A DNA stretch of 46,675 nucleotides from a virus: IMG/VR virus record IMGVR_UViG_3300035698_019051; one strand, given 5' to 3'. The first letter of the stretch is position 1; each line of letters starts with the position of its first letter. The notes below the pieces were generated by a model that saw nothing but the letters and a program-made list of their open reading frames with translations, was not told where the DNA came from and made no database searches. The position numbers and the translations under genes are program-made. This document shows, piece after piece, positions 2,246-43,056 of the stretch.

Positions 2246-3023
2246 GTAGGTCTCTGGTGATTTTACCATCACTACATTGCCACAGCCGACTCGGAGAATC
2301 AGGGGTATCGTCTTCTTCGTCTTCGTCGTCTTCGTCGTCAGGAGGGCCGAATTGCCCCAGGTATTTGTCAGCGTTAACCACTGGGATTCCGCGTAACCAA
2401 TGAATGTTGTCGGGGTCATACGGCGTATCCCCAACTTCACAAGCGCGGTTTAATAGAGCTGGGTCCAAAAGCCCCACATCGATCGTATCCCCGTCTTGCG
2501 GTAGATCGCCACCGCGATCGAGAAGAGTATCGATAACCGACATCGGTTCAGAACCAAAAGACAAAGGAACGAAAAACGCCGTTGAATTGCTTTTAACTTT
2601 CAGCTCTGGTGCAACTTCTTGAATGTTAAATGTCATACGTGACATAGACTTGGCAATATTAGGCATCAGAGCACAACTATACCATCGCCCTTCTTTGTCG
2701 TAATAGATAGCAAACTGGAAGAATTCCTCAGGCTTATCTTGAGACCACCAATTAAGGTGCTTACAGATCTCTGAGCTTTGAGGCAATACAAATATTGGGC
2801 ATGGGTCGTGTGGAACATCATCCTCCTCACGCCAGGACCAGCAGCACGCCTCTGCACTCCCCAAATCTGCAGCATCATCCATGAACTTGATAAGAGATCT
2901 AATAACCTTCTTTTGCTGCCACTTAGTGGACAATTCGCTCAAAGGCCATTGTGGATAGAACAATGGCACGTATGATAAGGTTATCATTGACGTGCCATCC
3001 TCGTTAGAAGTATTCGTATTCAT
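2241..3023 (-). CDS. hypothetical protein with acidic C-terminal tail (DDEDDEDEEDD)
   Basis: 260-aa ORF; AGGAG SD; GC-rich upstream element at 3034-3090. Confidence 0.6.
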   Translation of the reverse strand: MNTNTSNEDGTSMITLSYVPLFYPQWPLSELSTKWQQKKVIRSLIKFMDDAADLGSAEACCWSWREEDDVPHDPCPIFVLPQSSEICKHLNWWSQDKPEEFFQFAIYYDKEGRWYSCALMPNIAKSMSRMTFNIQEVAPELKVKSNSTAFFVPLSFGSEPMSVIDTLLDRGGDLPQDGDTIDVGLLDPALLNRACEVGDTPYDPDNIHWLRGIPVVNADKYLGQFGPPDDEDDEDEEDDTPDSPSRLWQCSDGKITRDLL

Positions 3024-3033
3024 AATACACTCC

Positions 3034-3090
3034 TGCGCCCCAAGCGGCGCGACGTGTCGTGTCGCGACGGCGGCGCAGAAGAAACTATGA
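3034..3090 (-). promoter_or_regulatory. GC-rich upstream element copy
   Basis: GTGTCGTGTCGCGACGGCGGCGCAGAAGAAACTAT. Confidence 0.4.
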
Positions 3091-3510
3091 GTTGGGGGAT
3101 TCTACATCGTCGGCGGCTTCGACTTCGGTTTCGGCTTCGGCTTCGACCTGTGGCTCCTCAATAGATTCATCAGCAGGGAGGTCTAGAGCGGGGTCGATCT
3201 CAATAACCAGACCGGCAGGAATTGCTACGGAGCAGTCCGCGATGTCGGCAGGTACGTATGTCTTGAGCTTCTTCTGGAGCTTATCCGTGTCCAATCCCAG
3301 AATTCGTGGTTTCCACTTTCTACCCACTTTGCCGTTGTAGATGTTGGCATGGATAACTTCAGAGGTGTCGTCATTGACCAATACCCATGCGAATGCATCC
3401 ATCCCTTTACCTTGGAAGTGTTCTAGGGGCTTTTTGAAGACCCTTGTAACTTCGACCGCTGCCATATTGATACCAAATTTCTCGCGTTTCTCTTTGTCAT
3501 TCATTGCCAT
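3085..3510 (-). CDS. hypothetical protein with acidic C-terminal tail
   Basis: 141-aa ORF; C-terminus is EAEAETEVEAADD. Confidence 0.5.
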   Translation of the reverse strand: MAMNDKEKREKFGINMAAVEVTRVFKKPLEHFQGKGMDAFAWVLVNDDTSEVIHANIYNGKVGRKWKPRILGLDTDKLQKKLKTYVPADIADCSVAIPAGLVIEIDPALDLPADESIEEPQVEAEAETEVEAADDVESPNS

Positions 3511-7180: not shown

Positions 7181-7245
7181 GGCGGGAGGCACCCTCGCCC
7201 GCGTGTGGCCGTGCCGCGCGGCGGCGCAGGCCGAAACTACCTATT
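7181..7245 (-). promoter_or_regulatory. GC-rich upstream element copy
   Basis: GTGTGGCCGTGCCGCGCGGCGGCGCAGGCCGAAACTAC. Confidence 0.4.
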
Positions 7246-8045: not shown

Positions 8046-9064
8046 GTTTTAATTGCCAATGTAAGCAATTCCTTATCATGAGGCGACAATTTCAAGCTGC
8101 AGCCCCTGAACATAATCTTGAAATACTTCCTACCAGACAACTCATACCATCCAATATCGTTAAAAGCAATTGTATGTGAGCGGGCCTCATAGTCCCACGT
8201 GTTCAAGACGAACCATACATTCTCGTTAGCTGGGTTATTGACATCGAATGAAAAGCTTCCATCTTGATGCAATGCACCCGCATCCAACACCGTCGCCGTT
8301 CTTAGTATGTTGTTTCGGAGAGTACCCTTCATAACTGCGCATCGCCGCTGCGTCCGTGGGTCATAGCTCATCTCGTGGTCTATGAAATCTTTAGCATCGA
8401 ACTGTGCCGGTGCCGGCAGTTTTGTGTAGTCAATATTCTTTTTGTGGGATATCTCCCCATCGGCTATCTTCACAGCTTCTGTGAGTGATTCGCAATAAGG
8501 AGAATCTACCAATGTATAATGCTTCGCGGCACGCGGTTTAGCCCTGACTTCAAAATCAGTCATGAATGTCGCACTACCGTTTCTGAGACGGAAGGACACT
8601 TTTACCCCATCCTTAACGCCGTTGACCATATTATTCCTGCTGTGCTGAACAAATATCGGGCCAGACGGTTCTCGACCATAACCTGGCCTACCCTGCTCCA
8701 AAGTCATCTTCGCGTGCGTCTTATATCCTAAAAACGCGAGCGTATTTATGTTGTTCATAAATGCGTCATTGTACTCTGTATTAAATTGTGGACGTCCAGT
8801 TCCAAGGCAGCAGAAATACAAGAACAAGCGATGGCCACCTTCGCGGTTGAATTGCACTTTATAACAATTGGCTCTTAGCCCACCACCCACCCAAGCCCCA
8901 TTGACCCAGCTTTCGCGTACCGTAGCCTCAATTTGAACTGGCTCCCGAGCTGTCCATCCCTCTAAGCCCTTCCATCGCTTGATATGCTTCATTACAGTTT
9001 GTAATGACCCTGGAATTGTTTGGGTGCCACTAAATATAGCGGCATCTAATGAATATTCAGCCAT
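8024..9064 (-). CDS. hypothetical protein
   Basis: 346-aa ORF; GGAG SD. Confidence 0.6.
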   Translation of the reverse strand: MAEYSLDAAIFSGTQTIPGSLQTVMKHIKRWKGLEGWTAREPVQIEATVRESWVNGAWVGGGLRANCYKVQFNREGGHRLFLYFCCLGTGRPQFNTEYNDAFMNNINTLAFLGYKTHAKMTLEQGRPGYGREPSGPIFVQHSRNNMVNGVKDGVKVSFRLRNGSATFMTDFEVRAKPRAAKHYTLVDSPYCESLTEAVKIADGEISHKKNIDYTKLPAPAQFDAKDFIDHEMSYDPRTQRRCAVMKGTLRNNILRTATVLDAGALHQDGSFSFDVNNPANENVWFVLNTWDYEARSHTIAFNDIGWYELSGRKYFKIMFRGCSLKLSPHDKELLTLAIKTWMDQQT

Positions 9065-10485: not shown

Positions 10486-10491
10486 ATGCAG

Positions 10492-10530
10492 TTGTGCCGC
10501 GCAGCCCCCGCGTGAGCAATTACCCTTCCC
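10492..10530 (-). promoter_or_regulatory. GC-rich upstream element copy
   Basis: GTGCCGCGCAGCCCCCGCGTGAGCAATTACC, 7 nt from the ATG. Confidence 0.4.
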
Positions 10531-13141: not shown

Positions 13142-13602
13142 TAGTCGTCCTCGTGTTGATTAAAAGTCAAGATTGTCAATGACCCCGTAAACTTGGTATG
13201 CGAACTCCAAAGAACGGTCGAAATTATCGGACATATCACTCGCATTCTCGCCGCCATTGCCACCCCCTGACTTATCATACCAGCTATGGTGGCTTCTACC
13301 TCGCTACGGTTGTTGGCATTTAAAGTCCCCCCCGCCGCAAATGATAGCTTCCCAGTGCTAATCTTATAAACCATTTTATGCCTACCGTCGCCCATTCCAG
13401 ATACCACGTACACATGCACTATGTCATCTTCTCGTTTGTATGGGACAGCAAAATGAATTAATGGGCTGCTGTTGGGACTATATGGATGTAGCCAGCGATT
13501 AAGCCGATATGCATTGCATATCGTTGCGGCACGTAATTTGCCATCGGGGATTGCCATTCCTAACATTAGTCGTGTACCTTCATTCTGATGACCTTGCCCC
13601 AT
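13141..13602 (-). CDS. hypothetical protein
   Basis: 153-aa ORF coupled to the downstream gene. Confidence 0.5.
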   Translation of the reverse strand: MGQGHQNEGTRLMLGMAIPDGKLRAATICNAYRLNRWLHPYSPNSSPLIHFAVPYKREDDIVHVYVVSGMGDGRHKMVYKISTGKLSFAAGGTLNANNRSEVEATIAGMISQGVAMAARMRVICPIISTVLWSSHTKFTGSLTILTFNQHEDD

Positions 13603-14891
13603 TCGGGCTCGCTCTCTACATCCGTTGTTATTACGAACATAGCCGGGAAGTTCCGGGGGTGAGGCCAGTTACAGTAGCCGTCGGTGAGCATGACCATCAC
13701 GCTGCCGACTCCACTGTTCTCTTCCAACCACTCAACGGGAGCGGACATATCAGTGCCACCGCGTCCGCCGATTGTGATGCTCTTCCAGTCGCCTCGCCTA
13801 TATCGGTCGAAGCCCTGGAATTCGGCGTCCCATTGGAGAACGAACACCTTCGCTCTGTAGGAGATCGCCTCGATCTCAGCGAAGAACTGCTCCAACTCCT
13901 GGGTTCCGATTGACCCGGAGGTATCGACGATAACTGACACGGTGGCGGCTGCGTGCCTGCTGGTGCCCTTGAATCCGAATTTCTGCATTCGTCTGTTGGC
14001 TCGGGAGTACGTCTTCCGTTTATTGCCAACGTGGGTTCCCAAGAACTGCCTCAACACTTCACGCCATCTGACGATGGGCTTGGACAGTGCCTCAAGCACC
14101 TGTTTAAGGTGCCCCGGAACGTGCCCTTGCGACTTATTGGTGGCCTCTTTCACCATATCGTGAATGAGCTGCCTGGCCTCGTCCTGGGAGATTTCGGACT
14201 GGTTCCACACATCGTGGTCGTCTAGGGCTTTGCCCTCGTGATTGCCGTGCTGGTAGTAACCGGGCTTGCCGTTGCCCTGGCCTTCTCCCTCGCCCTCTCC
14301 CTCGCCTTCGCCTTCTTCGCCGTCGCCCTGACCTTGTCCTTGGCCCTGACCTTGTCCTTGGCCCTGACCTTGTCCTTGGCCCTGACCTTGTCCTTGGCCC
14401 TGACCTTGCTGACCGCCACTTTCGGCAATCTGGTCGTAGTAGGTTTCGGCGGACTCGCCGGTCGACCAGTTCTTGGGGACGAAGCACATCTTGTTATCGG
14501 GCAGGATCAGCGTTCCGTTTTCTTCTTTATAGCCGATGAATGGGGCACCCTGCTCGCCATTAACCGCCATGTCGGTGGCTATATTCCAGGCGTCGACTTC
14601 TCGCCCACCGGTTCGAACTGTATGCAGCCTCACAAGGTGGTTGATAACGTGCTCAATGACGCCGTATAGAACGCGGAGATCGGTCTTCTGAACCCACTCC
14701 GAGCTATAGAAGGCTTGAATCGCGCCGGTGCCATTGATCCGCATCCCGAGAGTACGTTTCTCAGGATCCTCCACCCAGGTCATTTCCGATTCCTTCCACT
14801 CGATGGACATTGCCATATGCCCATACCATGGTTCCCTGGTCATGAGGCGACATCGCGCTCTCATCAGTCTGTCTTCTGCTGTTTCTGCCAT
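13566..14891 (-). CDS. VWA-domain protein with N-terminal putative metallopeptidase-like domain and (GQ)17 linker
   Basis: C-terminal DxSGS MIDAS-like motif (VIVDTSGSIGT), which is VWA-like. The N-terminal histidine-rich helix region resembles the DUF2201_N-type partners of MoxR ATPases. The central stretch is GQGQ...GEGEGE. Confidence 0.7.
   Translation of the reverse strand: MAETAEDRLMRARCRLMTREPWYGHMAMSIEWKESEMTWVEDPEKRTLGMRINGTGAIQAFYSSEWVQKTDLRVLYGVIEHVINHLVRLHTVRTGGREVDAWNIATDMAVNGEQGAPFIGYKEENGTLILPDNKMCFVPKNWSTGESAETYYDQIAESGGQQGQGQGQGQGQGQGQGQGQGQGQGQGQGDGEEGEGEGEGEGEGQGNGKPGYYQHGNHEGKALDDHDVWNQSEISQDEARQLIHDMVKEATNKSQGHVPGHLKQVLEALSKPIVRWREVLRQFLGTHVGNKRKTYSRANRRMQKFGFKGTSRHAAATVSVIVDTSGSIGTQELEQFFAEIEAISYRAKVFVLQWDAEFQGFDRYRRGDWKSITIGGRGGTDMSAPVEWLEENSGVGSVMVMLTDGYCNWPHPRNFPAMFVITTDVESEPEWGKVIRMKVHD
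14271..14410. repeat. 18-nt tandem DNA repeat encoding (GQ)n/(GE)n
   Basis: ccttggccctgaccttgt unit repeated about 5 times, then a GAGGGC-type repeat. Confidence 0.8.
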
Positions 14892-17982: not shown

Positions 17983-18030
17983 CCTCTGCCGTGTCGCCGT
18001 GCCGCGCAGTCGCGCCGCGAGAAATTCTAA
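17983..18030 (-). promoter_or_regulatory. GC-rich upstream element copy
   Basis: GTGTCGCCGTGCCGCGCAGTCGCGCCGCGAGAAATTCTA. Confidence 0.4.
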
Positions 18031-27251: not shown

Positions 27252-27316
27252 TAAAAGCTCCTTGTGCGTCTTCAAATACGCGGTTGTGCAGCACGACCCC
27301 AGCAGCAACTACTCTC

Positions 27317-27332
27317 ATACCCGCTCGGGTAT
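27317..27332. promoter_or_regulatory. palindromic operator-like site ATACCCGCTCGGGTAT
   Basis: 7-bp inverted arms around a 2-nt centre, in the csrA/kinase divergent intergenic region. Confidence 0.5.
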
Positions 27333-27411
27333 ATCTTGCTACTTCTGTGTAACATCGAACCGCTTTGTGCAACATCCTTGTAACATTTTAACCCCTTTTG
27401 GCCCGTCTCTT

Positions 27412-27427
27412 ATACCCGTTCGGGTAT
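27412..27427. promoter_or_regulatory. second copy of the operator-like palindrome ATACCCGTTCGGGTAT
   Basis: Same arms, 95 bp centre-to-centre from the first copy. Confidence 0.5.
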
Positions 27428-27518
27428 TAGATGACCATTCGCGCGACTATTGTGGCGCGCAAGAATAGGCCGCGACATGAGTGGCAGTTGTTATTGCCAA
27501 AGAACTCAAATATATAAT

Positions 27519-28352
27519 ATGTCATTTGCACACCGTATAGAGGTAATTTTGGAGGCGATTAATGATCATGACCTCCTCGACGCCGTATTCACTCGCTTCC
27601 CGAGTGTTGGGCCATGGCTCAAGAAATTCGACATCGATTATAGCAGCTTACGTCAGCTTGGCCCAGGTGGTAGCCATGGCATAGCATATAGCGATGGCAC
27701 GAAAGTCGTCAAGGTCACAGACGACGACCAAGAAGCTACCGCATCCTACCGTATGATCGAGCATCCGGTCCAAGGCGTCAATAAGATTATTGCAGTTTCT
27801 AAACTAGGCAAGACATTTACATGGCACGCACCGGATACCATGGAGATGGATGATTTTGAATCGCAATTCTATATTATTATCCAGGATCTTCAAGGGACAG
27901 AACTCACTGAGTTGGAAACCAATGTAATCGGCCTCGTCGGCGATTATATTATGGAGTATTATCACGGCGAAGGAAGTCCGCAGCACAAAGCTGGTAAGGG
28001 TATGTTGGCTCGGATGAATAAATATGAACCCACTGAAGATTCAGTAAAAATGCTGGCACGCTACGAAGCCAAGCAGTTAGAGAATCACCCATATCAAGGC
28101 TGGTTTAGTGCAGCCACCGAAGGCTCAGAAGATGCTAAGGGCATTGCCATACAACTTTTTGAAGCAGTCATACGGCTTTGGTATGCAGGCGTTAGATTCT
28201 TTGATGTGCAGCCCGAGAATACGGGGAAAGATAGTGATGGCAATTATGTGCTCTTCGACCTAGGCGTATCCACCACCAAGGGCCGGGAACGAATCAACCA
28301 ATCTCTCACCACGCTCCAAGCGGGCCTCCTGCGGCGTATCCCCGTTATTTAA
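27519..28352 (+). CDS. eukaryotic-like Ser/Thr protein kinase-like protein
   Basis: Gly-rich stretch GPGGSHG; catalytic-loop-like DVQPEN (compare HRDxKxxN/DLKPEN); DLG in place of DFG. Start taken at Met24 of ORF 27450..28352. Confidence 0.55.
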   Translation: MSFAHRIEVILEAINDHDLLDAVFTRFPSVGPWLKKFDIDYSSLRQLGPGGSHGIAYSDGTKVVKVTDDDQEATASYRMIEHPVQGVNKIIAVSKLGKTFTWHAPDTMEMDDFESQFYIIIQDLQGTELTELETNVIGLVGDYIMEYYHGEGSPQHKAGKGMLARMNKYEPTEDSVKMLARYEAKQLENHPYQGWFSAATEGSEDAKGIAIQLFEAVIRLWYAGVRFFDVQPENTGKDSDGNYVLFDLGVSTTKGRERINQSLTTLQAGLLRRIPVI

Positions 28353-28741
28353 TCCTTTCCAAACCGCATCACTTCGGTCAGCTTCGCCACGACAGCATCG
28401 AGCTTGTAGACTCGCGGGTCGCAGAGCCAGAACCTTTGGGTTTTCTCGGGCATATCCAGAAACGCCTCTGGCATGTCGTCGAAGAACACGTCGGTATCTA
28501 GCTCTCTAGCCATACGACCTTTATATGCAGCAATCGACTCTCCCCAGTTATCGCTTAGGTAGAGGCCGTCATGCTCTATGCCGTAATCCGCCAACTCTTG
28601 AAGTGTCTCATCCCTACCATCTATCCCCCTATATGATACGATATAGACCTTATGGCCCGCAGCCCTGAACGCCTTCGATAAGATGGCGAAGAATGCGGGC
28701 ATTTCGGTGATTGTTGCATCAATGTCAATTCCAATATTCAT
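28349..28741 (-). CDS. HAD-superfamily phosphatase-like protein
   Basis: Motif I DIDATIT (DxDxT), conserved Ser/Lys positions, and an FFDD acid pair; convergent with the kinase gene and overlapping its 3' end. Confidence 0.55.
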   Translation of the reverse strand: MNIGIDIDATITEMPAFFAILSKAFRAAGHKVYIVSYRGIDGRDETLQELADYGIEHDGLYLSDNWGESIAAYKGRMARELDTDVFFDDMPEAFLDMPEKTQRFWLCDPRVYKLDAVVAKLTEVMRFGKD

Positions 28742-29121
28742 GACTTACTCAGTTCGTTCTCGTAAAATTGCTCTTGTACCGCCCATCCAGCCTCCGGGGC
28801 CTCCTTAAGCTCAACTTCGACGGTGTATTTATAGATCGGTGTAAAAAATCGCCCGCAATTACAGGGTCTTACTGTCTCAATCGACCGAACAATCCCTTTT
28901 TGCTTCCCGACGGAATACCCTGATCGCATCATCACTCCAGGCGACGATGCCACACTCACACCCTCCGCCAGCGACCCATTCGCCGGTGTGGGTTGACTCC
29001 AGACCGTGCAGTCATTTATTACCACAGTATTACCGACTTGGTATCGTGGGTCTGGAAACCAGATGCACGCTACGGCGACAGCAGTCAATGCGATTACTAT
29101 AACACAGATCCATTTGCTCAT
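28738..29121 (-). CDS. exported/membrane-anchored protein
   Basis: GAAGGAA SD before the internal start MSKWICVIVIALTAVAVA (signal/anchor helix); the longer ORF-track version runs through the terminator hairpin. Confidence 0.5.
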   Translation of the reverse strand: MSKWICVIVIALTAVAVACIWFPDPRYQVGNTVVINDCTVWSQPTPANGSLAEGVSVASSPGVMMRSGYSVGKQKGIVRSIETVRPCNCGRFFTPIYKYTVEVELKEAPEAGWAVQEQFYENELSKS

Positions 29122-29218: not shown

Positions 29219-30250
29219 TTACTTCTTCGGTGCGGCACCAACGCCGGTGTCGGTCAATGCCAGGGGAACCTTGATTCCATCGGCTGACAGAGCAAGGAAC
29301 ACCTTCTCGGAGACAACGTTGACTCCGGTCAGCATGCCCTTGAGCTTATCGGCCAGTAGACCAGCGACTTCAACAGACGCTCGTCGTTGGCCTTCCTCGC
29401 CGGAGTACTGAGCCAGTTTCAATGCCTCGGCGGCTTTGGCATTCGCTATGCCGAGAGCCTCGATGCCCTTGGCTTCGAAGACGTCCTTTTCCATCTGGCC
29501 TTCGCCCTGCAAGGCGAGTTCCTGTTTCTCGGCTGTGGCTGCTGCGACTCTGGCTGCTGCCTTTGCATCGGCTGCTAGAACCTGCTGCTCAGCGTCGCCT
29601 TCTGCTTTGGTTACTACTTCGATCTTCAAGGCGTCGGCTTCGGCCTGTCGGGTTGCAACCATGACCTGCTGTTTGGCTGTTTCGGCCTTGGCTTCCGCGA
29701 CTGCGGCCTTTTCCTCTTCGACGGCTCGCAGTGTCTTCTGCTTAGCCAGCTGCTTGAGCTGAATCTCATCTACGTAGTCCGAGTCGAGCTTGATGTCATA
29801 CAACGTAGCGGTTTCGATCACGATTCCACGATCCACGAACTGCGGATGAATTTTAATGGCGTCGTTGATTTCGACCCGCAAGTCGTTGAACCCTGAACCG
29901 GAGTAGATGGTCAATGCTTCTTTGGGCCGAACCATCTCATTAACGACATCGATGATCGTCCGCTTCATAGTGACGTACTGGTAAGTTTTGTGGATGCCAT
30001 CTCTGTAGAGTTGCACTGCTTTTGGCTTATCCAGGTGGTATTGGACTGTCAGGATGATCTTCGCCTTCTGACCACCTTCGTTGCCGCAGGCCACTTCGAT
30101 CACGTCGAATTCATTATCCGCCGTATCTTCGCCTTCCTCGTCGTTCGTTTTTTGTTCCGCGAACGTCAACTTCTGCGTACCAACGTAAATCTTGTGGCAA
30201 TTACCGAACCACACGAAGTGCACTCCGTCGCCGAGGAACTCCTCCCACAA
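29219..30250 (-). CDS. SPFH/band-7 (flotillin/HflKC-like) domain protein; the 5' end is probably in another frame
   Basis: SPFH core followed by a long Ala/Glu/Lys-rich coiled coil (AVEEEKAAVAEAKAETAKQQ...). The ORF as tracked starts at TTG with no SD; see the N-terminal TM ORF at 30201..30305. Confidence 0.75.
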   Translation of the reverse strand: MWEEFLGDGVHFVWFGNCHKIYVGTQKLTFAEQKTNDEEGEDTADNEFDVIEVACGNEGGQKAKIILTVQYHLDKPKAVQLYRDGIHKTYQYVTMKRTIIDVVNEMVRPKEALTIYSGSGFNDLRVEINDAIKIHPQFVDRGIVIETATLYDIKLDSDYVDEIQLKQLAKQKTLRAVEEEKAAVAEAKAETAKQQVMVATRQAEADALKIEVVTKAEGDAEQQVLAADAKAAARVAAATAEKQELALQGEGQMEKDVFEAKGIEALGIANAKAAEALKLAQYSGEEGQRRASVEVAGLLADKLKGMLTGVNVVSEKVFLALSADGIKVPLALTDTGVGAAPKK

Positions 30251-30737: not shown

Positions 30738-30782
30738 ACCGCCGTGGCGCGGCGCGGCCGCGCGGGCAATCGCAATTCCCCG
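30716..30782 (-). promoter_or_regulatory. GC-rich upstream element copy
   Basis: GTGCCGCACACCGCCGTGGCGCGGCGCGGCCGCGCGGGCAATCGCAATTCC. Confidence 0.4.
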
Positions 30783-35950: not shown

Positions 35951-36217
35951 TCACCAGACGGGGGTTCCACGATTTCGCCATTTCGTTTGCGTAGCGGTAT
36001 GGATGCAGGCCATCTGGGCCAATGCACCCAAAACGAAGATGCCTACGAAACAGGAGATTGACCAGATAAAGAATCGAGCCATCGGTGACGCTGTGGTCGC
36101 CCCATTCGCATTTATATCGGGTACAATTCCGGCTAAGGCCGAGAGGTTAATAAACCCCGGAGGTGCTATGAACCACAGCACTGCGATTGCGATGATCATT
36201 GTCTTAATTGTCTTCAT
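35951..36217 (-). CDS. small membrane protein (3 TM)
   Basis: Hydrophobic helices; abuts ligA. Confidence 0.5.
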   Translation of the reverse strand: MKTIKTMIIAIAVLWFIAPPGFINLSALAGIVPDINANGATTASPMARFFIWSISCFVGIFVLGALAQMACIHTATQTKWRNRGTPVW

Positions 36218-38274
36218 TCTTCGTTTCCTTTTACCATTTCGATTAGGCGGTCTTCGCCGACCACTTGAATGTTCGCGCCTTTCGCGTTATAGCCAACGGC
36301 CTTCTTGCTCTTGTTGCTCTCGATCGCGGGGTCGGCAACTACCAGGAAGGATATGTCTTTCTTAACATCCTTCACGAGAGTGAATCCTGCCGCCGCGAGT
36401 GCGTCCTTGTAGTCGGCCTTTTTCTTGCCGCTTGGCAGAGTCCCAGTGATGCAGACTTTAGTGCCAGTAGGCTCAGCATCCGGTGCTGTCGGGACGAAAG
36501 CCTGAGGCACTACGCCGTGGGCTAGCAGCCCATCGATGATATCTGACATTTCGGCGATGCCAATAGCCCATCGTTCCGCCTTGGTGGGTGCGTTGATTTT
36601 GGCCTGCAGGTTCACATCACGGAGTGTCTCAACATGCCGCCAGCACGCCAATGTGCTCAATTCGGATGGGGCTTTCTGGCATGCCTTCTCAACTTCGCGT
36701 CTTCCCAGGCCATCAATTCCGAGCGAACCCAAGAAGATGTGGAGCGGTAGGATGCGTTTCTTATTGATCTCGTCAATCAAGTAGTCGGCGTTGTGCCCGA
36801 ATCTACTCTCACCGCTAATCAATATCTCCCGGAGTTGCTCCACCGGGATATCGGTGCCAAGCTTGTAGATGTCAGCAGGCGTGTGGATGTTCAGCTGGTC
36901 GTGGAGGGCTTCTCTTACAGCGTCGCCCACTCCCAGGATCTTGGTCTTCTTGAACCAGCTTTTCAGTTTTCCGTCGTGCTTGGCCGGGCATCCCGGATTT
37001 AAGCACATCGTGATTGCCCCAGTGCCTGTCTTGTTCTTCTTCGTCTTCTTGACCTTGTTACGACCCACATCGGCACCGCAGAAGGGGCAGGATGTCGGTT
37101 CAGGCATTTCCTGGCGTGTCGCCGGACGGGACACCACACCGATAACCTTGGGGATGATGTCATTGGCTCTGGTGATGTGGATGGTGTCACCAATGGCAAC
37201 TCCCAATCGCTCAATCTCTTCCCAGTTAGCCAGCGAGGCGCTGCTGTTTGTAGTGCCTCCGAGTTCCACTGGGTCGAATCGGGCATTCGGGATCAACATC
37301 CCAGTGTGACCGCCAGTGATCTCCATAGATCGCAGGACCGTTGTGGCGAGTTGATTCTCGGGTTTCCAGGCCACTTGACCCTTGTGGTACTTGCCACTCG
37401 GAGCGAGGCCCAATTCTGCCTGGACTGCCAGGTCGTCGATCTTAATCACGATCCCGTCGATCCAAAAATCGAGCGACCCTGCGTTATCAGCACCACCCCG
37501 CATCATCATGATCTGCTCGTAATGGGCTACGACATCATCGGCGTCGTCGAATGTTTGCCAAGGCATCACTGTGACGCCCACAGACTCGAGGTATTGCGAC
37601 TTCTCCGTTTCGGTGGCGAATTCGATGCCATTCTCGACGTCGAATGCAAACGCAGTGATGAAGCTGGACTGTTGCCCGTCCTTGCGCCCGAAAACGCCGT
37701 TGCCTTGGTTCCTGGGGTTCTTCCCGCCCGTGATTCGCCAGTCGGCTTTCGTGAGGATGGCTTCGAACCTGATCGAGCCATCGAACGGCCCGTGATCATC
37801 GTCTTCGATGTACGGCGGCAGTCCCTTGAACCCGGCGACGTTAGCGGAGATGTCTTCGCCCACAATGCCGTCGCCACGGGAAATTCCTTGAACGAGATAA
37901 CCGTTCTCGTAATAAGCCGCGACTGAGCCACCATCGCCCTTCCAGCTTACATGAACCCGCCCGCCCCTGGCTTTCTCGGCGTGCCACTTGCGGAATTCGG
38001 TTTCAGAATTAACCTTGTCCTGACTCCCCATATGGGTCTTATGCTCGGCCTTGTTCAGGATATTGTCATTGGGGATTGGGCATCCGACCATCACCAGAAC
38101 TGGGTCCTGATCACCCAAGGGGCTGATTTCAGCCAGCTCCGCTTCCAGAGCATCATACGATGGGTCTTCCATGATGGGCTGCTGGGTGTAGTAGTATGCC
38201 TGCTTGGCCTTGATAATTATGTTGCGCAGTTCAATTAGTCTGTCCATCGGTTCTCCTTTTGGCGTAGATTGCAA
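36214..38274 (-). CDS. ligA: NAD-dependent DNA ligase LigA
   Basis: N-terminal Ia domain (YYYTQQPIMEDPSYDALEAE); adenylation motif KGDG plus YENGYLVQGISRGDGIVGEDIS; Cys4 zinc finger (CPFCGA...CLNPGC); a C-terminal region consistent with HhH/BRCT. Confidence 0.9.
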   Translation of the reverse strand: MQSTPKGEPMDRLIELRNIIIKAKQAYYYTQQPIMEDPSYDALEAELAEISPLGDQDPVLVMVGCPIPNDNILNKAEHKTHMGSQDKVNSETEFRKWHAEKARGGRVHVSWKGDGGSVAAYYENGYLVQGISRGDGIVGEDISANVAGFKGLPPYIEDDDHGPFDGSIRFEAILTKADWRITGGKNPRNQGNGVFGRKDGQQSSFITAFAFDVENGIEFATETEKSQYLESVGVTVMPWQTFDDADDVVAHYEQIMMMRGGADNAGSLDFWIDGIVIKIDDLAVQAELGLAPSGKYHKGQVAWKPENQLATTVLRSMEITGGHTGMLIPNARFDPVELGGTTNSSASLANWEEIERLGVAIGDTIHITRANDIIPKVIGVVSRPATRQEMPEPTSCPFCGADVGRNKVKKTKKNKTGTGAITMCLNPGCPAKHDGKLKSWFKKTKILGVGDAVREALHDQLNIHTPADIYKLGTDIPVEQLREILISGESRFGHNADYLIDEINKKRILPLHIFLGSLGIDGLGRREVEKACQKAPSELSTLACWRHVETLRDVNLQAKINAPTKAERWAIGIAEMSDIIDGLLAHGVVPQAFVPTAPDAEPTGTKVCITGTLPSGKKKADYKDALAAAGFTLVKDVKKDISFLVVADPAIESNKSKKAVGYNAKGANIQVVGEDRLIEMVKGNEE

Positions 38275-43015: not shown

Positions 43016-43056
43016 CTGTGCTGTGCGGCGCAGCGCGGCCAGCAGCAAGTAGTAAT
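43016..43056 (-). promoter_or_regulatory. GC-rich upstream element copy in a divergent region
   Basis: GTGCTGTGCGGCGCAGCGCGGCCAGCAGCAAGTAGT. Confidence 0.4.

Follow-up and report, generated by a model that had tools for sequence, protein, structure and literature searches.

Twin palindromes upstream of a viral csrA gene resemble candidate operators of Y4mF-family HipB antitoxins

Introduction

The hipBA operon of Escherichia coli is controlled at four operators, O1 to O4, with the sequence TATCC-N8-GGATA. The operator arrays of hipBA and hipBST loci are short palindromes that occur in multiple copies near the promoter and are read by a dimeric antitoxin whose helix-turn-helix (HTH) domain resembles that of Cro. 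Autoregulation by HipB is a well-established paradigm (reviewed in PMC8262856), and it has been shown experimentally for Legionella HipBST (PMC10653801). Here we describe two palindromes, P1 and P2, that likewise are short and present in more than one copy and that lie upstream of csrA in a 46,675-nucleotide stretch of viral DNA (IMG/VR record IMGVR_UViG_3300035698_019051), which we refer to as the window. Their sequence is identical to TACCC-N4-GGGTA arrays found beside HipB genes of the Y4mF family. Unlike hipBA and hipBST, the locus has no hipB, hipS, hipT, or hipA, its two sites are 95 bp apart, and the gene concerned is a viral csrA. From these comparisons we lean, with modest confidence, toward the view that P1 and P2 are an operator pair for a trans-acting dimeric HTH protein of the Xre/HipB(Y4mF) type that regulates the phage csrA. 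The features concerned are as follows.

27317-27332, no strand assigned: P1, csrA-proximal palindrome ATACCCGCTCGGGTAT, 65 nt 5' of the csrA ATG
27412-27427, no strand assigned: P2, csrA-distal palindrome ATACCCGTTCGGGTAT, 95 bp from P1
27051-27251, minus strand: csrA, 66 amino acids (aa), confirmed as originally called by Pfam CsrA (1.1e-24) and NCBIfam CsrA (5e-26)

Results

Each palindrome has perfect 7-bp arms around a 2-nt center, and the start-to-start distance is 95 bp; the coordinates, arms, center, and spacing given in the original prediction were all reproduced in the sequence. The same was true of the distances to the two divergent start codons, which measured 65 nt from P1 to csrA and 94 nt from P2 to the plus-strand open reading frame (ORF). 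On the csrA-sense strand, P1 reads ATACCCGAGCGGGTAT followed by GAGAG, and P2 reads ATACCCGAACGGGTAT followed by AAGAG and contains a -10-like TATAAG. The likeness between the two sites continues 5 nt leftward (CTCTC/CTCTT), giving a 21-nt direct repeat. Exact matches to ATACCCGNNCGGGTAT were found only at P1 and P2, and the sole other match in the window had three mismatches. An exact match to 14 given bases would be expected, as calculated by hand, 1.7e-4 times in 46.7 kb, and because two copies lie 95 bp apart, the pair cannot be attributed to chance. As had been expected of a regulatory site, the palindrome was not scattered over random positions, with none beyond P1 and P2 within the 46.7 kb available.

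A syntenic contig from NCBI assembly GCA_024712125.1 (65.9 kb, here L174), reached via the kinase-like protein encoded next to csrA, was examined over a 20.9-kb locus. Its proteins are 55 to 92% identical to those of the window (about 84% for the csrA orthologue), and it carries the palindromes ATACCCGTCCGGGTAT at 8762 (8762-8777) and ATACCCGCTCGGGTAT at 8857 (8857-8872). All 28 arm positions are identical between the two genomes and the spacing is again exactly 95 bp, while three of the four center positions changed. Identity over the rest of the intergenic alignment is about 77%, and the substitutions fall in blocks without a codon-like pattern. Judged from this alignment, P1 and P2 are demonstrably under purifying selection. 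The invariant arms and variable centers in two diverged genomes, together with the occurrence of the same sequence beside Y4mF/HipB genes (see below), support at the sequence level the earlier proposal that these are sites for a dimeric DNA-binding protein.

The same proposal placed csrA and the divergent kinase-like gene under a single dimeric regulator, with one site for each promoter. The layout of the window suits such an arrangement, since csrA and the kinase-like gene diverge and a palindrome is found 65 to 94 nt from each start codon. However, the palindromes of L174 lie between csrA and a codirectional 99-aa ORF, with about 1.1 kb of sequence and two genes between them and the kinase gene. 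The genes concerned are the following.

27522-28352 in the window, plus strand: protein-kinase-like ORF, 276 aa, divergent neighbor of csrA
8880-9179 in L174, minus strand: Cys-rich ORF, 99 aa, with no counterpart in the window
9277-10056 in L174, plus strand: ORF of 259 aa with no counterpart in the window, where the corresponding stretch is 27428-27521

Because the palindromes of L174 adjoin csrA and are two genes removed from the kinase gene, they belong to csrA and not to a shared divergent promoter. The divergent promoter seen in the window is only apparent, since the 99-aa and 259-aa ORFs are missing there relative to L174, and the layout looks like an insertion/deletion difference rather than a conserved design. 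In addition, the plus-strand unit retains a conserved upstream block of its own, away from the palindromes (GCCGCGACATGAGTGGCA in the window and GGCGCGGCATGAGTGGCA in L174, sharing ...GCGGCATGAGTGGCA...). The kinase-like gene is probably not controlled by the palindromes; the claim of one regulator for both genes was not upheld by the relative, and we consider an operator pair shared between the two promoters quite improbable.

Two further identities for P1 and P2 were tried and rejected. Intrinsic (Rho-independent) terminators were ruled out by the lack of a T run after either palindrome on both strands and by a silent terminator scan. A dispersed repeat resembling repetitive extragenic palindromic (REP) sequences or miniature inverted-repeat transposable elements (MITEs) was ruled out because just two copies are present in 46.7 kb, in one intergenic region, and L174 likewise has two, in the orthologous place.

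The motif was then placed in a class by a blind scan of 185,579 genomes, one per bacterial or archaeal species, for two TACCCGNNCGGGTA sites 12 to 42 bp apart. It identified 65 loci, spread over many phyla, where a hand calculation predicts about 0.07 by chance. The neighboring ORFs were clustered and then searched by six-frame hidden Markov models (HMMs). At 36 of the 65 loci, arrays of two to six sites stood beside a small HTH gene encoding a Y4mF/HipB antitoxin, and the start of this gene was within about 100 bp of the array in nearly all of them. HipS-like and HipT-like genes, or a fused HipA, came after the HTH gene. The representative HTH protein matched TIGR03070 (type II toxin-antitoxin system Y4mF family antitoxin) with 80.6 bits (cutoff, 71.65), and the genes after it corresponded to TIGR03071 (HipA N-terminal domain) and then a HipA-family kinase. 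The motif thus belongs to the HipB(Y4mF) operator class, because arrays lie beside a Y4mF/HipB gene at these 36 of 65 loci. The sites were 40 to 41 bp apart in 60 of 75 intervals and 50 to 51 bp apart in 14, the longer period being that of Paraburkholderia and one Alphaproteobacteria metagenome-assembled genome (MAG). The operator consensus was wwTT(A/G)TACCCG(A)(T)CGGGTA(T/C)AAww (L109-L173; e.g., L123:2534-2590 and L160:2521-2700), with the arrays ending beside the hipB start codon, and one locus (L171) showed TTGACA, a site filling the 17-nt spacer, TATAAT, and a second site, in that order.

We built a position weight matrix from 108 HipB(Y4mF)-linked sites, whose own scores ranged from 2.9 to 38.5 with a median of 31.2. 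With this matrix, P1 scored 24.3 bits and P2 scored 23.9 bits, and the next best site in the window reached 1.9. A viral hipBST locus had CACCC-TAAA-GGGTA at 41-bp spacing, and the variable centers of P1 and P2 fit recognition of half-sites. What is conserved would be (T/C)ACCC as a half-site, the 4 bp between half-sites being free to vary, and such a unit suits an HTH dimer that contacts two successive major grooves. P1 and P2 have both the TACCC-N4-GGGTA sequence and the A/T-rich flanks of the class, and neither in the window nor in L174 are they accompanied by an adjacent, autoregulated Y4mF HTH gene with HipS/HipT or HipA after it. The two sites probably are an orphan variant that would work like a HipB operator and not a hipBST operator array.

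Other patterns were also seen among the bacterial loci. One of them (L170) has orphan twin sites that resemble a hipB remnant. Actinomycetota MAGs (L114, L115, L125, L140, L143, L149, L152-L154, L157, and L162) carry a different repeated element whose inverted ends, ATACCCGGTCGGGTA(A/C)C ... GGTACCCGACCGGGTAT, are separated by about 46 bp. It recurs throughout these high-GC genomes at many positions, has no adjacent hipB, and looks like a small dispersed repeat of the REP or MITE type.

Twin sites also occur in viral contigs. In a first scan for the 16-mer, many unrelated contigs had a second or third near-copy 27 to 41 bp off, far more frequently than the approximately 0.3 expected at up to two mismatches. 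Twin ATACCC-N4-GGGTAT sites were present at 48 viral loci, whereas the counts were 0, 5, and 0 loci for three control palindromes of the same base composition (two whose arms were permuted and one inverse form, ATAGGG-N4-CCCTAT), and a generic effect of any palindrome was rejected on this basis. The twin motif is therefore enriched about ten-fold or more over control palindromes in viral contigs that lack hipB. Together with the twin-site loci of the earlier scan, the 48 make up 57 loci, or about 38 lineages, and the sites are most commonly 40 to 41 bp apart, which matches the hipB arrays. No Y4mF, HipS, or HipT ORF was found at any of the 48 loci, 34 of which are flanked by 400 bp or more in each direction. 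BLASTP clustering of the neighbors revealed no other regulator family recurring beside the sites; the sole recurring neighbor was the large terminase subunit, in five lineages, with the sites 0.3 to 2 kb upstream. A 42-nt twin-site query had no match in cultured phages. Because twin sites are widespread without an adjacent hipB or a recurring regulator, their viral distribution fits a trans-acting factor. A Y4mF protein distributed across phyla, with the operator proposed here, would explain how phages of 29 to 65% G+C come to share the motif, and a phage protein of the same specificity is a possible alternative to Y4mF.

Y4mF-like genes themselves are scarce in viral data, with eight loci in IMG/VR in a single-protein scan and no match in a tblastn search of cultured phages. 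The exact GNNC-centered motif was absent from all eight loci, one of which has a single site with two mismatches, and two of the eight that were inspected had variant half-site palindromes instead. In L259-L261, a Y4mF-like HTH domain is fused C-terminally to a putative GIY-YIG nuclease domain (2569-3192, plus strand), with variant palindromes (ATACCCAATTAGGTAT) at the start of the reading frame, and a gene resembling this fusion adjoins the orphan twin sites of L170. The viral twin sites (L264-L308, L016, L019, L031, L035, L047, L056, L069, L084, and L102) often are found at operon starts; examples are sites that precede an SSB-like gene, a pair of genes with GroES as its last member, or terS/terL.

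The segment between and below the palindromes holds further elements that bear on how csrA may be controlled.

27346-27386, minus strand: three ATGTTRCA repeats (csrA-sense), all conserved in L174
27372-27383, minus strand (csrA-sense): candidate CsrA site UUACAAGGAUGU, an 11/12 match to the CsrA consensus from systematic evolution of ligands by exponential enrichment (SELEX)
27283-27308, minus strand: TTGCTG-N14-CACAAC, a degenerate copy, by our own assignment, of a GC-rich promoter-like motif, between P1 and the csrA ribosome-binding site (RBS)
27258-27263: csrA Shine-Dalgarno sequence AAGGAG

On the plus strand, the repeats read TGTGTAACAT (27346-55), TGTGCAACAT (27366-75), and TGTAACAT (27379-86). 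They have the common core TG(T/C)AACAT and are spaced at 20 and 11 nt. Three TGT(G/A)(T/C)AACAT repeats had been predicted; two are exact (27346-27355 and 27366-27375), and the third, TGTAACAT, is two bases short. The form TGTRYAACAT is not enriched over the window, with 10 matches at up to one mismatch against 8.7 expected. All three repeats are conserved in L174 while the sequence between them diverges, and the longest conserved block across them is the 20-nt ATGTTACACAGAAGTAGCAA. We take UUACAAGGAUGU to be a near-consensus CsrA site, the consensus being RUACARGGAUGU. At this position, L174 retains GGA (GCAGGAAUGU) and has a second GGAAUGUUGC unit, so that the site is only partly conserved. 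It would be relevant only if the csrA transcript begins upstream of it. Both UUACAAGGAUGU, which is partly conserved, and the AAGGAG RBS are on the csrA-sense strand, where they would be candidate elements of a CsrA-regulated leader.

These leader features bear on the main alternative to a protein-binding site, in which csrA would have a long 5' leader and P1 and P2 would act within it as RNA hairpins, each with an AUACCC/GGGUAU stem and a loop of 4 nt, serving as stabilizers, processing sites, or brackets around the CsrA site, and control would be posttranscriptional instead of through a DNA-binding protein. Both hairpins are part of the minimum-free-energy fold of the csrA-sense strand (z = -1.96), the putative CsrA site lies between them, and the purine-purine centers and RAGAG tails are directional on the csrA-sense strand in both genomes. 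Among the viral loci, the proximal site of L019 and L031 falls between a likely promoter and the RBS, and some copies have UUCG or GAAA centers. However, the stem sequences are conserved and show no covariation, at both sites and in unrelated genomes, where an RNA stem should tolerate compensatory change, and the same sequence is arrayed on DNA beside an HTH repressor gene at the 36 bacterial loci. The loops of the window (GAAC and GAGC) are not of stable tetraloop types, the z score is modest, and Rfam covariance models gave no match at E values up to 1 on either strand of the region 26800-27800. The palindromes have no U-tract and hence are not intrinsic terminators, and P2 may not be transcribed at all. 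Taking both sides together, we regard RNA hairpins as unlikely.

As an operator pair, P1 and P2 could work as follows. The half-sites ATACCC and GGGTAT, with a 4-bp spacer between them, would have their centers one helical turn apart, and both sites would be occupied by a trans-acting dimer, either the HipB(Y4mF) antitoxin of the host or a phage protein encoded outside the window. A distance of 95 bp corresponds to about nine helical turns and would put both sites on the same face of the helix, where two dimers could cooperate and, to judge by the spacing, could loop out the conserved 79-bp segment holding the ATGTTRCA repeats. Transcription of csrA would be held off until the binder is lost or titrated, repression being the direction taken by analogy from HipB-type operators. 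A second, posttranscriptional layer is possible if the transcript starts upstream, in that CsrA may bind UUACAAGGAUGU and the AAGGAG RBS of its own leader.

A broader idea, which we put forward tentatively and consider doubtful, is that many unrelated phages use orphan HipB(Y4mF) operators to couple genes, here csrA, to the toxin-antitoxin state of the host. Phage genes would be repressed while the labile host antitoxin is present and would be turned on when it is degraded or diluted, as in abortive infection by HipT/HipA or on shut-off of host transcription. Alternatively, replicating sites might titrate HipB, with operator mimicry serving as a sensor of, or a decoy against, host defense.

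The csrA unit with its palindromes is specific to this lineage. The csrA block is wholly absent from a more distant relative (L104), and because neither the palindrome nor the leader was present at any of 80 metagenomic csrA loci (61 to 83% identical), the palindrome is not a general feature of csrA. The absence from L104 suggests the behavior of an accessory cassette, and P1 and P2 could accordingly be a captured or decaying fragment of a hipBST-type promoter that came with the csrA cassette and is now unbound or just a source of -10-like TATA sequence. Bacterial orphan twin sites that resemble hipB remnants exist, such as those of L170, and P2 has TATAAG/TATAAA on the csrA-sense strand. However, the retention of all arm positions and of the exact spacing while the flanks diverged argues for present function, and the 80 csrA loci provide no donor context. 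We therefore find a captured or decaying fragment very improbable.

Transcription of the element may rely on a signal of its own. The motif TTKC-N16-SSSCACRRC (TT(G/T)C-N16-SSS-CAC(A/G)(A/G)C) has seven exact hits, all on the minus strand and thus in gene sense, against 0.09 expected.

857-885, 2203-2231, 7208-7236, 10491-10519, 17996-18024, 30741-30769, and 43020-43048, minus strand: exact hits of the element-wide motif

A typical copy consists of TTGCTC, a 17-nt GC-rich spacer, and CACAAC, usually about 30 to 40 nt 5' of start codons; looser copies stand in other intergenic regions, and the motif is present in L174 too. It probably is the element's own type of promoter, unlike sigma-70 promoters. 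The copy at 27283-27308 has a 14-nt spacer, versus the usual 17, and is poorly conserved in L174.

The product of the divergent ORF (27522-28352) matched no family in Pfam, PHROG, or NCBIfam. A word-index search of 5.8 billion proteins matched just two, one of which has the same sequence as the query, and an exhaustive HMMER search of 1.84 billion cluster representatives gave 105 remote relatives, some of which weakly match APH/ABC1 atypical-kinase models. The C-terminal part of the product can be aligned, though weakly, with solved kinases over their catalytic-loop/DFG region. The earlier name of kinase is therefore plausible but unproven, with weak kinase-like signals over a catalytic-loop/DFG-like region and no family match. 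A relationship to HipA/HipT was ruled out by HMM, NCBIfam, and structure-match searches and by searches with the relatives. The family is sparse and does not appear to have a Pfam name; it comprises stand-alone proteins of 220 to 300 aa and proteins of 1000 to 7000 aa with several matching stretches, and one of five mid-size relatives scanned also has a phage-lysozyme domain. With the ORF as the query, no relatives were found in viral contigs.

Nearly all genes of the window are encoded on the minus strand. Annotation was possible for very few of them, and none was recognized as a virion structural gene. There is no close cultured phage, and a blastn search of cultured phages with positions 26000-29000 was empty. 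The viral contigs nearest to the window have lengths of 122 to 341 kb, and on the basis of these relatives the source is treated here as a large, jumbo-phage-like element. The most conserved marker tying the window to these contigs is an ATPase (23614-24978, minus strand; PHROG ATPase, 2e-52), homologues of which are annotated MoxR in some phage records. Both this ATPase and a DUF2201 metallopeptidase/VWA-like protein (13566-14891, minus strand) were found again in two of the 122- to 341-kb contigs. A shoulder domain of the Major Vault Protein (3e-29) and a Vault_3 repeat (2e-10) were found in an 861-aa protein (18095-20680, minus strand), which is unusual for a phage-like element, and a separate SPFH/Band 7 protein is encoded at 29219-30250. 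Two DNA ligases are encoded in the window. The ATP-dependent one is short (26049-26699); the NAD-dependent one is probably the 686-aa ORF at 36214-38274, to judge by the Pfam hits of its L174 orthologue.

Discussion

Several observations weigh against an operator pair of the HipB(Y4mF) type. The binder is hypothetical: Y4mF, HipS, and HipT profiles in six-frame HMM searches had no match in the window or the 20.9-kb L174 locus, hhalign against the Y4mF profile gave a probability of at most 4% for every ORF of the window, and the roughly 60 ORFs of the window include no Pfam HTH and no candidate small DNA-binding protein. The window and L174 each have two sites at 95 bp, where the class has two to six sites at 40 to 41 or 50 to 51 bp. 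The bacterial arrays are themselves inferred to be HipB operators from gene adjacency and the autoregulation paradigm. No description of a TACCC-N4-GGGTA operator was found in the searchable literature, which also had nothing relevant on the palindrome itself or on an operator of Y4mF. The O1 to O3 operators of Legionella HipBST are an 18-nt site that appears different from TACCC-N4-GGGTA (PMC10653801). In both genomes, each site has an RR center and an RAGAG tail on the csrA-sense strand, so that palindrome and flank are directional, which a purely symmetric protein site does not require. The comparative support comes from one relative, L174. A sigma-70 promoter scan found none in the csrA upstream region, and control could be by repression, activation, or a roadblock. 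Weighed together with the conservation in L174 and the arrays beside Y4mF genes, these points leave us with the modest confidence in an operator pair given at the outset.

If binding of the HipB type is true, a phage-borne global RNA-binding regulator would be under a toxin-antitoxin-style repressor that is absent from the phage region, and the expression of phage genes would be tied directly, through regulation, to the antitoxin status of the host. TACCC-N4-GGGTA with a period of 41 or 51 bp would be a cross-phylum operator consensus for Y4mF-type HipB, one not found in the literature searched. Either this consensus or the viral twin-site motif could be used as a DNA probe for the poorly studied HipBST branch.

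Compared with known systems, P1 and P2 differ from the E. coli HipB operator in both half-site and spacer and do not belong with it. With the operators of phage Cro and CI proteins (OR and OL of lambda and 434), they share near-identical palindromes in a phage regulatory region, with conserved outer half-sites and variable centers, as read by a dimer of the Xre/Cro fold. However, classical phage operators adjoin the repressor gene, whereas P1 and P2 have no repressor gene nearby and their motif occurs in about 38 unrelated viral lineages. The E. coli csrA gene is autoregulated via GGA sites in its leader, and the phage csrA has the candidate CsrA site UUACAAGGAUGU and an AAGGAG RBS upstream, with one upstream site, partly conserved in L174, versus four sites in the E. 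coli leader. Finally, whereas looping at P1 and P2 is suggested by their spacing alone, the two sites resemble the looping systems of GalR, LacI, DeoR, and AraC in that they stand about nine helical turns apart around a conserved regulatory segment.

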